DNA from: Alphaproteobacteria bacterium
Lineage (GTDB): Bacteria; Pseudomonadota; Alphaproteobacteria; MPNO01
Reading direction: 5' to 3'
DNA length: 64,000 bases
Assembly (NCBI GenBank): GCA_964291675.2
Contig: OZ219866.1
Span: forward strand, 736,001-800,000
Part shown: piece after piece, positions 31,710-35,964 of the stretch
Layout of the letters: the number at the start of each line of letters is the position of its first letter
Position numbering within the stretch: position 1 is the stretch's first letter
Position numbers and translations under genes: made by a program
The notes under the pieces: generated by a model
Database searches by the model: none
What the model was told of the DNA's origin: nothing
Seen by the model: the letters and a program-made list of their open reading frames with translations, nothing else

Positions 31710-31961
31710 ATGACCAAGACCGCCAAGCTGTTCTGGAACGGGAGATCCCAGGCCGTGCGGCTCCCCAAGGAATTCCGCATGCCGGGCAAGGAGGTCCGGA
31801 TCCGCCGCCAGGGCGCGGCGGTCGTGCTCGAGCCGATCTCGGACGGCTGGGAGTGGCTCGATGAAATCCAGGGCAAGTTCTCCGACGATTTCTTCGCCGA
31901 AGGCCGCAACCAGCCACCGATGCCGCCGCCGCGGCCCGGCCTCGACGACGCCTTCGAATGA
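31710..31961 (+). CDS. vapB: VapB antitoxin (AbrB/SpoVT fold)
   Basis: TAKLFWNGRSQAVRLPKEFR signature. Confidence 0.93.
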   Translation: MTKTAKLFWNGRSQAVRLPKEFRMPGKEVRIRRQGAAVVLEPISDGWEWLDEIQGKFSDDFFAEGRNQPPMPPPRPGLDDAFE

Positions 31962-32371
31962 TGCGCTACCTGCTGGACACCAATGCCTGCGTCGCGCTCC
32001 TCAACGCCAGCTCACGCAGCCTGTCCGCGCGGGCGCGGCGCCACGGTGCGGAACAGATCGGGCTCCCCGCCCCGGTGGCGTTCGAGCTCTACTACGGCGC
32101 CTTCAAGAGCCGCGAGGGGAGCCGGAACCTCGGCCATCTCGACCGGATGGCGTTCGAGATCGTCCCCTTCGACGCGGCCGACGCGCGCGCGGCCGGCGTG
32201 ATCCGCCGCGATCTCGAGGCCAGCGGGATGCCGATCGGCCCCTATGACGTGCTGATCGCCGGCCAGGCCCGGGCGCGGAATTTGGTGCTGGTCACCGCCA
32301 ATACGCGCGAATTCGAGCGGGTGGACGGGTTGAAGCTCGAGGATTGGTCGACTCCCATGCCGGATGGTTGA
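31958..32371 (+). CDS. vapC: VapC PIN-domain toxin
   Basis: YLLDTNAC, ELYYGA, IGPYDVLIAGQA and LVTANTREFERVDGL. Confidence 0.93.
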   Translation: MMRYLLDTNACVALLNASSRSLSARARRHGAEQIGLPAPVAFELYYGAFKSREGSRNLGHLDRMAFEIVPFDAADARAAGVIRRDLEASGMPIGPYDVLIAGQARARNLVLVTANTREFERVDGLKLEDWSTPMPDG

Positions 32372-32472: not shown

Positions 32473-33117
32473 ATGCCCAATATCCGCATGCTCGACATCG
32501 ACGAGCTCAAGGCGGGCAAGCTCCGCCCGCTGGTCAACAAGGCGCTGCGCCACCGCGCGCCCGACCCCGCCTTCCACGCCATGCTGGGCCACAGCCCGGA
32601 CGTCGCGCGCACGATGTATCTCGCCTGGGGCGCGGTGTTCAACACCGGGCGGATCGACCACAAGCTCAAGGAAATCATCCGCGTCCAGCTCTCGCGGATG
32701 GCCGCGTGCCGCTATTGAGGCAATGTCAGGTCTGCTTCGGCGAAGCAGCAGGGACTGACGGAAGAGACCATCGACGAGGGCATCGAATCCCATGCGTCAA
32801 GCGACCGCTTCACCCCGGCCGAGAAGGTCGCGCTGCGCTACTCCGAGCTGATGGGGAGCGCGCCGGACAGGGTCGATGCCGCCCTCTACGCGGCGCTCGC
32901 GGAGCACTATTCGGTCGAGGAGATCGTCGAGCTCGGCGCCTTCGTCGGCTTCAACGTCGGCTACCACACCTTCTTCGGGACGCTCGACTTCTACCCGATG
33001 TTCACCCCCGACGGTCGGCTTGTCGACCAGGCGGAGTCGCGGCGGATCTACGGCGAGACCCCGGTCTCGCTCAACCGGGGAGCGCTCGCGCGCGCCACCG
33101 GGGAAGCCGCCGAATGA
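32473..33117 (+). CDS. AhpD/carboxymuconolactone-decarboxylase-like selenoprotein, CxxU (Sec at TGA 32716-32718), 214 aa
   Basis: ORFs 32473..32718 and 32851..33117 are in one frame joined through a single TGA: ..KEIIRVQLSRMAAC-R-Y-(TGA)-GNVRSASAKQQGLTEE..; aligns without gaps to the downstream paralog across the TGA; SECIS-like hairpin follows. Confidence 0.88.
32716..32760 (+). promoter_or_regulatory. Bacterial SECIS-like stem-loop
   Basis: Inner stem CTGCTTC(32732-38)/GAAGCAG(32742-48) with G-initial loop GGC; outer stem GTCAG(32725-29)/CTGAC(32755-59); apical loop starts 21 nt after UGA. Confidence 0.75.
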
Positions 33118-33662
33118 GCCTCCGCGGCACGCTCCCGCCGGTGCCTCGCGCGGCGATCGACGACCCGAAGCTCCAGGCGCTGATCGCGCGCTCGGAAGAG
33201 ACCGGCATCGCGGACTCGCGGTTCGTCCGGCTGCTCGCGCATGTGCCGGGCTATGCCGAGGCGCTGCACGACGCGCTCGACCGCTCGCTGATGGAAGGCG
33301 CGGTCGATCACAAGCTCAAGGAGATCGTCCGCGTCCAGCTCGCCCGGCTCGCCGGCGATCCCTACTTTTCCGCCTTCCGCTCGAAGCGGGCGCTGGAGGA
33401 CGGGCTAACCGAGGAGCGGATCGAGGCGGGGAGCGGCGATTTCGAGACTGACGCGCGCTTCACCCCCGCCGAAAAATGGGCGCTCCGCTACGGCTGGCTG
33501 ATGTACCGGGAGCCCGGGAAGGTCGACAAGGCGTTCTACGACGAGGGCAAAGCGCACTACTCCGAAGCCCAGATCGTCGAGCTCGGCGCCTTCATCGCCT
33601 TCCACTACGGCATGCAGATCTTTCTCGGCACCCTGGACCTGCCCGAAGAAGAAGGTGGCTGA
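33114..33662 (+). CDS. AhpD/CMD-like paralog lacking redox Cys/Sec
   Basis: DHKLKEIVRVQLARLAGDPYF..GLTEERIE..RFTPAEKWALRY..HYSEAQIVELGAF mirrors the upstream gene; CRYU replaced by DPYF; ATGA overlap. Confidence 0.85.
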   Translation: MSLRGTLPPVPRAAIDDPKLQALIARSEETGIADSRFVRLLAHVPGYAEALHDALDRSLMEGAVDHKLKEIVRVQLARLAGDPYFSAFRSKRALEDGLTEERIEAGSGDFETDARFTPAEKWALRYGWLMYREPGKVDKAFYDEGKAHYSEAQIVELGAFIAFHYGMQIFLGTLDLPEEEGG

Positions 33663-35964
33663 GACGCGGGTCGAGGATCCGCCGCTGCTGCGCGGGCGGG
33701 CCCGCTTCGTCGACGACATCCATCTGCCCAAAACCCTGCACGCGGCGTTCCTGCGCAGCCCGCTTGCGCATGCCGGGATTGCGGGCATCGACAAGAGCGC
33801 GGCCGAGGCGGCGCCTTGCGTGCACGCGGTGTGGACGCTCGACGATCTCCGCCCCCATCTCGCCGCCCACCGCCTCGTCGTCGGCCTGCCGAGCCCGTCC
33901 TACCGCCAGCACCGCGACCGGCCGCTGCTCGCCGACGGCGAGGTCGTCCATGTCGGCGAGGCGGTGGCGATGGTCGTTTCCGCCTCGCGCTACGCGGCCG
34001 AGGACGCGGCGACGCTGGTCGATGTCGCCTACGAGCCGCTCCCCGCCGTCGCCGACTGCCGCGACGCGCTGGCGCCGGAGGCGCCGCCCGTCCATCGCGG
34101 CGCCGACCACAACCTGCTCGCCGAGCTCGCCATGGAATTCGGCGACGTCGAGGCGGCGTTTGTCCGCGCGCACCGCATCTTCGCCCTGAATCTCTCCGTC
34201 CATCGCGGCGGCGGCCACTCGATCGAGGGGCGCGGCGCGCTCGCCCGCCACGACCCGGTCGACGACCTTCTGACGCTGTGGAGCTCGACCCAGACGCCGC
34301 ATGCCGGGCGCGACGCGATCGCCCGCATGCTGGGCCGCGGGACCCGCCGCGTCCGCGTCGTCACCCCGGCGGTCGGCGGCGGGTTCGGCCCCAAGCTCGT
34401 GACCTACCCGGAAGAGGTCGCCGTCGCGCTCGCATCCGTGCTGCTCGACCGGCCGGTCAAGTGGATCGAGGACCGGCGCGAGCACTTCGTCGCCAGCACC
34501 CAGGAGCGCGACCAGCACTGGGACATCGAGGCCGCGTTCGACACCGGGGGCCGCATCCTCGGGGTCCGCGGGACCATGCTGCACGATCACGGCGCCTATA
34601 CCGCGCGCGGCGCCAATCTGCCCTACGAGTCGGCGCTTACCGTGACGCTGCCCTACGACGTGCCGGCCTACCGGCTCACGGCCCGGGCGGCGCTCACCAA
34701 CAAGGTGCCGGTCACCCCGGTCCGGGGCGCCGGTCACCCGCAGGCGGTGTTCGCCATGGAACGCCTGCTGGATGCGGCGGCGGACGGGCTCGGCATCGGC
34801 CGCGCGGCGATCCGCGAACGCAACCTGATCGGCCCCGAACGCATGCCCTGCACCCGCCCGCTGGAGACCCGGGGCGGGCGCAAGGTGGTGCTCGACTCGG
34901 GCGACTATCCGGGCTGCATGAAGGCGGCGCTCGATGCCGCGGACTGGGACGGTTTTGCCGCCCGGCGCAAGGCGGCGAAGATGCTCGGGCTCGCGCGCGG
35001 CATCGGGCTTGCCAATTTCGTCAAGGGAACCGGGCGCGGGCCGTTCGAATCGGCCGCCGTCGCCATCGACCCGGCGGGCACGGTGTCGGTCGCTTCCGGC
35101 GCCGCCGCGATGGGCCAGGGGATCGAGACCATGCTCGCCGGCATCGTCGCCGAGACGCTCGGCTGCGACCGCGATCTGGTCAGGGTCACGGCGGGGGATA
35201 CAGGCGCGATCGCGCTCGGCATTGGCGGGTTCAACAGCCGCCAGGCGGTGACCGCGGGGAGCTCGGCCTTCAACGCAGCGCGCCGGGTACGCGACAAGGC
35301 GCTCGCCGTCGCCGCGCATCTCCTGGAGGCGGCGCAGGAGGATCTCGAAATGGCGGGCGGCGAGGTCCGGGTGCGTGGCGCGCCCGATCTCAGCGTCCCA
35401 CTCGGCCGGCTCGCCGAGACCGTGGGGGGCACGCCGGGGGTGACGCTGCCGGCGGGGATCGCGCCCGGGCTCGCGGCGGACGAATACACCGTGCTCGACG
35501 ACATGCCGTTCGCCAATGGCAGCGCGGTCGCGGAGGTGCAGATCGATCGCGAGACCGGGCACGCCGCCATCCATCGGCTCACGGTCGCGCACGATTGCGG
35601 GCGCATCGTGAACCGGGCGATCGTCGAAGGCCAGATCGTGGGCGGCGCGGCGCACGCCGTCGGCAACGCGCTCTATGAGTGGATGGGGTTCGACGACGAC
35701 GCCCAGCCGCTCACCGTGACGCTCGCCGACTACCTGCTGCCGGGTTCGACCGACGTGCCGAGGGTCGCTACGGTGCACATGGAATCGCCGAGCCCGCTCA
35801 ACCCGATCGGGGTCAAGGGGGTCGGCGAATGCGGCACCGTCCCCACCGCCGCCGCCATCGCCGCCGCGATCGAGGATGCGCTCGGCCTGCCCGGCGGCAC
35901 CGTGCAGCGCGTGCCGCTCGCCCCCGCCGACATCGGGAGGCTTGCCCGTGACCATACGCTTTGA
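33655..35964 (+). CDS. Xanthine dehydrogenase/CoxL-family molybdopterin-binding subunit
   Basis: RVEDPPLLRGRARFVDD, VGGGFGPK, PVRGAGHPQ, MGQG, GQIVGG and KGVGE; lacks the form I CODH AYxCSFR motif. Confidence 0.93.
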   Translation: MAETRVEDPPLLRGRARFVDDIHLPKTLHAAFLRSPLAHAGIAGIDKSAAEAAPCVHAVWTLDDLRPHLAAHRLVVGLPSPSYRQHRDRPLLADGEVVHVGEAVAMVVSASRYAAEDAATLVDVAYEPLPAVADCRDALAPEAPPVHRGADHNLLAELAMEFGDVEAAFVRAHRIFALNLSVHRGGGHSIEGRGALARHDPVDDLLTLWSSTQTPHAGRDAIARMLGRGTRRVRVVTPAVGGGFGPKLVTYPEEVAVALASVLLDRPVKWIEDRREHFVASTQERDQHWDIEAAFDTGGRILGVRGTMLHDHGAYTARGANLPYESALTVTLPYDVPAYRLTARAALTNKVPVTPVRGAGHPQAVFAMERLLDAAADGLGIGRAAIRERNLIGPERMPCTRPLETRGGRKVVLDSGDYPGCMKAALDAADWDGFAARRKAAKMLGLARGIGLANFVKGTGRGPFESAAVAIDPAGTVSVASGAAAMGQGIETMLAGIVAETLGCDRDLVRVTAGDTGAIALGIGGFNSRQAVTAGSSAFNAARRVRDKALAVAAHLLEAAQEDLEMAGGEVRVRGAPDLSVPLGRLAETVGGTPGVTLPAGIAPGLAADEYTVLDDMPFANGSAVAEVQIDRETGHAAIHRLTVAHDCGRIVNRAIVEGQIVGGAAHAVGNALYEWMGFDDDAQPLTVTLADYLLPGSTDVPRVATVHMESPSPLNPIGVKGVGECGTVPTAAAIAAAIEDALGLPGGTVQRVPLAPADIGRLARDHTL

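Follow-up and report, generated by a model that had tools for sequence, protein, structure and literature searches.

The stretch analysed here (the window) comprises 64,000 nucleotides of contig OZ219866.1 (positions 736,001 to 800,000) in the assembly GCA_964291675.2 of an alphaproteobacterium. On its forward strand, at 32473..33117, lies a gene with a single in-frame TGA at 32716..32718, which very probably encodes one selenoprotein of 214 residues with the AhpD/CMD fold; this judgement covers jointly the protein, the decoding of the TGA as selenocysteine (Sec), the redox chemistry and the partner protein described below. The gene consists of 214 codons and a terminal TGA, and the in-frame TGA, read as U82, occupies the place of the second Cys in the CxxC motif of the CMD/AhpD family (C79-x-x-U82).

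In the list of open reading frames (ORFs) of the window, the gene appears as two ORFs of the same frame, 32473..32718 (81 aa) and 32851..33117 (88 aa), whose sole separator is the TGA at 32716-32718 (codons TAT TGA GGC at 32713-32721). Translation with TGA as U results in one protein of 214 residues, which reads ...RVQLSRMAACRYUGNVRS... around the motif C79-R-Y-U82-G-N-V-R. The TGA is followed by a series of codons poor in G or C at third positions (GC3), namely AAT, AGG, TCT, GCT and GGA, whereas GC3 of the flanking parts is 0.94 and 0.84; TCT and GCT are unchanged in 16/16 orthologs. The two fragments in one frame, the read-through product of 214 aa and the break in GC3 bias had all been described in a first-pass annotation of this DNA, and are borne out by the ORF list, the letters and the translation.

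The position of the TGA is the same in all close relatives. A six-frame search of 41 genomes (that of the window and 40 relatives) yielded 16 places of 75-100% identity with exactly one TGA each, comprising all 12 genomes of the genus (the window's own included) as well as 4 genomes that belong to two further genera of the family, and in 16/16 the TGA is found at one shared column, C-x-Y-stop-G-N-V-R-S. A pattern scan with one genome per species yielded at least 600 candidate stretches, at least 468 of which encode a relative; among the best 80 of these 468 (63-94% identity), the TGA is located at the Sec column in 80/80 loci. Their titles name Rhodospirillales, Nitrospinota, Burkholderiales/Betaproteobacteria, SAR324, Chloroflexota, Acidimicrobiia, Verrucomicrobiales and Hyphomicrobiales. 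Four loci are common to both sets, leaving 92 distinct places. Distant homologs (25-35% identity, from the related genomes) possess Cys at this column in 14/14 cases, as C-x-[YF]-C, and eight more CxxC forms are contained in the alignment of column-spanning cluster representatives.

The ratio of nonsynonymous to synonymous differences (pN/pS) amounts to 0.279 in codons 1-81 and 0.298 in codons 96-196, with pS around 0.69 on both sides, and this near-equality indicates that both halves are translated in this frame. A lone stop in an open frame is what a recent nonsense mutation or a wrong base call would produce; that the gene is a pseudogene, or the codon an error of assembly or sequencing, has nevertheless a negligible probability, given the same codon in 16/16 and 80/80 orthologs and a downstream pN/pS equal to that upstream. 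Furthermore, contigs from four public sequencing runs (X1, X2, X17 and X3) bridge the codon. The X1 contig (32506-32786) exhibits 4 differences, all at other places. Of the six differences each in X2 and X17, five and three, respectively, were located, and none of those listed is at 32716-32718; neither is any listed there for the bridging contig of X3, although 133 more differences exist beyond those listed. X17 is an RNA library in which DNA carry-over is possible, so that the presence of the sequence in it does not prove transcription. Across runs, shares were small and most holders are labelled sponge metagenome, an observation not used as evidence.

Concerning public sequence databases, a protein search returned 299 hits, 120 of which were listed, and a search of 1.84 billion cluster representatives, with one of the database proteins as query, returned 678 hits, the best 150 of which were evaluated. 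Most relatives among the listed matches of the first search are pieces of 117-144 residues starting just past the Sec column. Among the best 150 of 678 cluster representatives, N-terminal fragments stop at residue 81 or before and C-terminal ones start at residue 85 or after. Public gene callers thus predict the very pieces expected if the TGA were a true stop, in which case the locus would make an N-terminal peptide of 81 residues, either alone or along with a C-terminal protein that has its own start; under selenium shortage, moreover, termination at UGA is expected to compete. A split gene of this kind nevertheless has only a slight chance of being the correct explanation. The stop would cut the CxxC motif in two; 49/80 loci are without ATG, GTG or TTG in the first 13 codons past the TGA, which argues against a separately started C-terminal protein, and with the first ATG of the window 44 codons on, conserved residues would be lost. 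A stop confined to one column across 63-94% identity, with a conserved hairpin after it and with Cys at this place in remote homologs, is characteristic of Sec rather than of a split gene.

The genome (4.8 Mb, 69% G+C, on two contigs, here C1 and C2) contains the full Sec machinery, as the first-pass annotation had predicted: selA (C2:2840351-2841709; 565.5 bits), the adjoining selB (C2:2838438-2840312; 455.7 bits) and selD (C2:1869115-1870017; 314.4 bits), all above the curated cut-offs, and the tRNA-Sec gene selC (C2:2837316-2837407; 76.7 bits, above cut-off), which ARAGORN likewise names tRNA-SeC with anticodon tca. Furthermore, selA is present in 41/41 of the related genomes searched, such that the whole group can be considered to use Sec. 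That the system is there for a formate dehydrogenase containing Sec was considered and rejected, an internal stop being found in 0/13 formate-dehydrogenase-like matches. In four alphaproteobacterial loci (L091, L110, L114 and L122), selA is situated directly upstream of the cassette formed by the selenoprotein gene and its paralog, on the opposite strand; this adjacency connects the family with the Sec system at the level of the genome.

Seven near-full-length database proteins (P0005-P0009, P0011 and P0023) exhibit W at the Sec column, as would be expected from read-through without Sec, by a near-cognate or suppressor tRNA carrying Trp, Cys or Arg, or from a genetic code that assigns an amino acid to TGA. 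P0005 and P0006, however, are 97% identical to the proteins of loci L081 and L071, respectively, the DNA of which has TGA, and for this reason the printed W is most likely a product of gene calls with code 4 (TGA=Trp) on short contigs. Not only does the gene itself end in TGA; the orthologs do so in 42/79 cases (TAG in 22, TAA in 15; one more runs off its locus), which indicates that these organisms also use TGA to terminate genes in the usual way. Trp would further make no chemical sense in a CxxC redox motif in which distant homologs have Cys, and a complete Sec system is at hand, so that we consider decoding without Sec very improbable. The W-printing entries could mislead searches for Cys or Trp homologs. 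None of the 120 matches listed has a source name saying "selenoprotein".

The first-pass annotation had read the TGA as Sec and had named three outcomes that would speak against this: lack of the Sec genes, a residue other than Cys at the column in homologs, and a sequencing error. Instead, the four components are all present, the column holds Cys in distant and TGA in close homologs, and error is excluded by the conservation and agrees poorly with the X1 contig. Decoding as Sec is thus supported.

A Cys form closer to the Sec clade than about 35% identity was not found among the best 150 of 678 cluster representatives. Within this set, matches above about 50% identity are all fragments, except P0157 and P0267, which cross the Sec column and both align as the CxxC-less paralog type described below; other matches spanning the column have at most 44% identity. 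When aligned, the column-spanning matches fell into three kinds: a single frameshifted chimera, proteins of the CxxC-less paralog type, and CxxC forms with identities of about 30-35%. P0135 and P0138 are of the paralog type without CxxC and possess a C-terminal tail like that of the Sec protein (YPEHDRDG..V.QE.SAR.YGP.P); judged from their sequences, they are apparent intermediates between the two members of the pair.

A hairpin that resembles a bacterial selenocysteine insertion sequence (SECIS) follows the UGA. Its conserved part (32732..32748, forward strand) consists of a 7-bp stem (CTGCTTC 32732-32738 with GAAGCAG 32742-32748) and a GGC loop (32739-32741); the stem starts 13 nt after the UGA, in a stretch that encodes S-A-S-A-K. 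According to the available text of the Sargasso Sea study (PMC1088965), bacterial SECIS elements are recognised by a stem-loop shortly downstream of the UGA whose small apical loop includes a G, and the upper hairpin, with its 7-bp stem and GGC loop, is of this form. The first-pass annotation had described a hairpin of two tiers, and the letters are indeed present in the window: GTCAG (32725-32729) and CTGAC (32755-32759) flank the upper stem, extending the hairpin to 32725..32759 (forward strand), and the first G of the loop is 21 positions past the A of the UGA. Comparison among genomes, however, upheld the upper tier alone. In an ungapped alignment of 81 sequences (75 distinct rows; TGA in columns 10-12, the stem in columns 26-32/36-42, corresponding to 32732-32738/32742-32748), 97.1% of the cells of the upper stem are paired among the distinct rows, whereas the lower tier is paired in 68% of cells, its pair 22-50 forming in 8/75 rows, and is not conserved in that form. 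An alternative lower stem showed no change on both sides of a pair and was likewise rejected.

Pair 27-41 of the upper stem occurs as U-A (36 rows), C-G (28) and U-G (11) and is broken in none of the 75 rows. Pair 28-40 is G-C in 68 rows, G-U in 3 and broken in 4, and pair 26-42 is broken in 11. The covariation score of the stem was matched by 0/500 column shuffles, and control partners slid by 1-3 columns were paired in only 26-65% of cells. The covarying pair 27-41 couples a silent position (TCT/TCC) with the middle base of the Gln/Arg codon, an apparent constraint of the RNA on the protein. Codons 83-95 exhibit lower synonymous divergence (pS 0.47, compared to 0.69 elsewhere), and the peptide G-N-V-R-S-x-S-A-K is invariant among 44 aligned orthologs.

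Regarding the protein, residues 45-123 match the Pfam family PF02627 (CMD) with 44.2 bits (cut-off 23). The structure model predicted from 44 orthologs (predicted local distance difference test score, pLDDT, 84; predicted template-modelling score, pTM, 0.83) found 22 matches in the PDB with E <= 0.001, and all 17 matches listed with E < 0.01 are AhpD/CMD proteins, peroxidase-related proteins or Bmp8; AhpD of D. radiodurans (6k40), for example, matches the model with a template-modelling (TM) score of 0.69. Searching the PDB by sequence led to the same relatives. Among the aligned orthologs, E67, 12 residues before C79, is invariant and presumably constitutes the counterpart of the AhpD Glu located 12 residues ahead of the first Cys.

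The gene is directly followed by a paralog of 182 aa without CxxC (33114..33662, forward strand), the ATG of which overlaps the stop TGA of the selenoprotein gene (ATGA) and in which G-D-P-Y-F-S replaces C-R-Y-U-G-N. It belongs to the same Pfam family (CMD, 26.6 bits; cut-off 23) and aligns with the Sec protein over 158 residues with 44% identity and 0 gaps, with DPYF opposite CRYU, in agreement with the gapless alignment on both sides of the stop given in the first-pass annotation. The paralog is situated directly downstream in 76/80 loci and fused in frame in 2, whereas the remaining 2 loci end too early. Both fusions contain one TGA each: L096:1501-2781 (426 codons, SAR324) and L118:1501-2802 (433 codons, Betaproteobacteria). 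Such fusions, truncated at the TGA, would match several database hits with lengths of 319-371 residues. As the two genes adjoin, overlap by ATGA and are fused in some loci, the Sec protein and the paralog probably work together as a hetero-oligomer.

Taken together, these observations are consistent with the following mechanism. A ribosome arriving at UGA-82 would meet the hairpin 13 nt downstream, which would recruit SelB with Sec-tRNA(Sec); Sec would be inserted and translation would continue as far as the terminal TGA (33115-33117), after which no such hairpin follows. In the protein, C79-x-x-U82 would form, as judged from the family, a redox centre where AhpD has its CxxC; the selenolate of U82 would be the likely attacker, forming a selenenylsulfide with C79, and some thiol system would recycle it. 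The protein would accordingly be a thiol/selenol oxidoreductase like alkylhydroperoxidase D, and in the hetero-oligomer with the CxxC-less paralog each pair would consist of one active and one inactive CMD unit. By analogy, a role linked to alkylhydroperoxidase or as disulfide reductase is the default for the family, and a dehalogenation like that of Bmp8 would be speculative.

Several points weigh against this interpretation. Concerning the hairpin, only one stem pair truly covaries and 4/7 never vary, and the paired-cell counts are inflated by kinship among the sequences, the cells not being independent. In this genome of 69% G+C, the stability of the single sequence is unexceptional (z = -0.53; 63/200 shuffles fold as well or better), so that the support for the hairpin comes from the comparison with other genomes, and the minimum-energy fold of the single sequence takes a shifted register. 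RNAalifold with the 81 sequences gave another, weak structure (-4.38 kcal/mol, 0 compensatory pairs), which was discarded, since the UGA itself is paired in it and variation gives it no support. Searching Rfam with E up to 10 gave no family, save two chance hits on the other strand. The co-occurrence of selA with the gene does not discriminate, as selA is present in all of the 41 genomes. Concerning the protein, the residue at +4 after U is Arg86 in 44/44 orthologs, whereas the aligned solved relatives have His there (C-x-x-C-x-x-x-H); the nearest Cys forms likewise have Arg at +4. The His at +4 of the second Cys in AhpD acts in a proton relay. The Sec protein, as modelled, would thus combine an AhpD-like fold and redox motif with the lack of the AhpD His. 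Two narrower families gave scores below their cut-offs, NF053654 'YciW-related (seleno)protein' with 62.6 vs 310 bits and TIGR01926 'peroxidase-related enzyme' with 33.4 vs 81.8 bits; the Sec protein is related to both and a member of neither. Finally, we infer the insertion of Sec at codon 82 from sequence comparison, and the joint action of the pair is likewise predicted. The single selenoprotein gene with its paired partner nonetheless stays very much the most probable reading of these data.

A bolder proposal, which we consider possible though rather doubtful, is that the family forms a Sec clade without any Cys version, spread over at least seven titled groups, in which the Sec subunit works only when paired with a dead paralog, be it as coupled genes or as a fused chain. 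If this were true, two genes would re-create an AhpD-like layout with one active site per two CMD units, the reaction might lie beyond the reach of Cys (e.g., reductive dehalogenation of the Bmp8/deiodinase type), and the RNA hairpin would have frozen the peptide G-N-V-R-S-A-S-A-K. An invariant Sec, a fixed inactive partner and the fusions offer a clean system to ask why Sec has been retained although Cys would cost less, and also what a dead CMD subunit contributes. On the practical side, standard annotation misses the gene, its relatives being cut at the TGA or given W; with at least 468 relatives in species-representative genomes, the family is widespread, and its contribution to selenoproteomes is under-counted.

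Concerning the neighbourhood in the window, the large subunit of a molybdenum (Mo) hydroxylase (Ald_Xan_dh_C and two MoCoBD domains; 33655-35964, forward strand) starts 8 bases before the stop of the paralog, an overlap which suggests one operon in this genus. The Mo-hydroxylase is found beside the pair in just 3/80 loci, all of them close relatives. Neighbours elsewhere are unrelated (class-III aminotransferase, esterase, TctC, CoA-transferase, AMP-binding enzyme, EamA), and across the loci no conserved neighbour was found besides the paralog and, in the four loci mentioned, selA; the neighbourhood gave no functional lead. Upstream, between a hydantoinase B gene and the selenoprotein gene, a VapBC-type pair is situated (31710-31961 and 31958-32371, both on the forward strand), consisting of a MazE/AbrB-type antitoxin and a PIN-domain toxin with a 4-base overlap. 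Among the 4 closest loci, it is present in L051 and L053 and not in L052 and L054, and it looks like a variable insert.

Elsewhere in the genome, four more frames with one C-x-x-TGA were found at about C1:738900-739929 (+), C2:580870-581988 (+), C2:1279477-1280580 (+) and C2:1413345-1413974 (-). Three of them are paralogs of around 370 residues with C-x-Y-U-T-x-x-H, and one, of 209 residues with C-P-F-U, exhibits 1 TGA also in several relatives. A hairpin follows the TGA in all four, and by their sequences they are likely further AhpD-like selenoproteins. A crude scan based on GC3 gave two other candidates: C2:2746817-2747521 (+) with F-G-S-F-T-U-P-P-F around an in-frame TGA, which we take to be a deiodinase-like motif, and C2:2936764-2938398 (+) with G-L-U-S-T-C, followed by a strong hairpin. 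A further candidate of the genome scan, at C1:948099, proved to be an ordinary stop between two genes of the same frame and was rejected.

The hairpin can be compared to the SECIS of fdhF in E. coli, which is a hairpin within the coding sequence right 3' of the UGA, with a short spacer, a G in the apical loop and a bulged U. Both lie within the coding sequence 3' of the UGA and share the G in the loop, and a U at 32731, below the stem, may correspond to the bulged U. The sequence is different, however, the loop has only the three bases GGC, the lack of an Rfam match sets the element apart, and binding of SelB is predicted here.

Among solved structures, AhpD / PA0269 of P. aeruginosa (7xw1, 2ijc, 2o4d) is the best match in both sequence (E 2.5e-7 to 3.6e-7) and fold (TM 0.86 over the target for 7xw1, root-mean-square deviation 2.2 Å). 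Its CxxC aligns with the CxxU, C-A-Y-C-V-N-M-H corresponding to C-R-Y-U-G-N-V-R. The differences are an identity of around 25%, a length of 133-145 residues, His at +4, and Cys in place of Sec; relative to this protein, the Sec protein is extended at the N-terminus and has, in addition, a conserved tail at the C-terminus (FYPMF.PDGRLV.Q.ES..IYG). AhpD of M. tuberculosis (1gu9, 1me5, 1lw1) belongs to the same all-helical AhpD/CMD fold family and has a CxxC-type redox centre. In that enzyme, the second Cys is the nucleophile, a Glu is located 12 residues before the first Cys, and the subunit consists of two CMD-like halves, one of them active, which would parallel the active and inactive members of the pair described here. 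The structural match is weak, however (E about 1.4, TM 0.40-0.48), and the comparison gives Arg at the place of His137 of AhpD, Sec instead of Cys, and two genes instead of one duplicated chain.

The debrominase Bmp8 (6ohi, 6ohj) shares the CMD fold and is about as long (TM 0.65 over the query, with 171 columns aligned), and it demonstrates that this fold is able to carry thiol-based reductive dehalogenation; its chemistry has been likened to that of the selenoenzyme deiodinase. It differs by an identity of only 20-22% and the lack of Sec, and the neighbourhood of the gene in the window contains no pointer to halogenated substrates.

The organization found here is most similar to that of the CxxU AhpD-like selenoproteins of marine metagenomes, the earlier report of which had been pointed out in the first-pass annotation and is confirmed by the available parts of two publications (PMC1088965, PMC2398784). 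The Sargasso Sea study of 2005 (PMC1088965) gives, in the part accessible, 27 CxxU AhpD-like sequences and 4 described as 'CMD domain-containing', and the corresponding part of the Global Ocean Sampling (GOS) study of 2008 (PMC2398784) gives 299 sequences of 'AhpD-like 1' (COG2128) and 70 of 'AhpD-like 2' (pfam02627). As far as their accessible text goes, AhpD-like selenoproteins are also included in a genome survey of 2006 (PMC1794560), a review of 2026 (PMC13188914) and the BSepDB paper (PMC13326102). Concerning the GOS groups, which were compared by their description, the agreement is in domain and CxxU only; and whereas the review, in the part available, gives TIGR01926 for its 'AhpD-like protein', the protein of the window is below the cut-off of that model. 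The available text of the literature on AhpD-like selenoproteins contains no mention of the pairing with a paralog, of fusions or of the lack of close Cys forms; as supplements were outside this search, these features are not claimed to be unpublished. With the marine selenoproteins, the gene shares the domain family, the CxxU at the place of CxxC and a hairpin 3' of the UGA with a small loop containing G, and many of the relatives found here are marine metagenome-assembled genomes. The gene is thus a further case of the CxxU AhpD-like kind of selenoprotein, which has been in print for about twenty years (since 2005).

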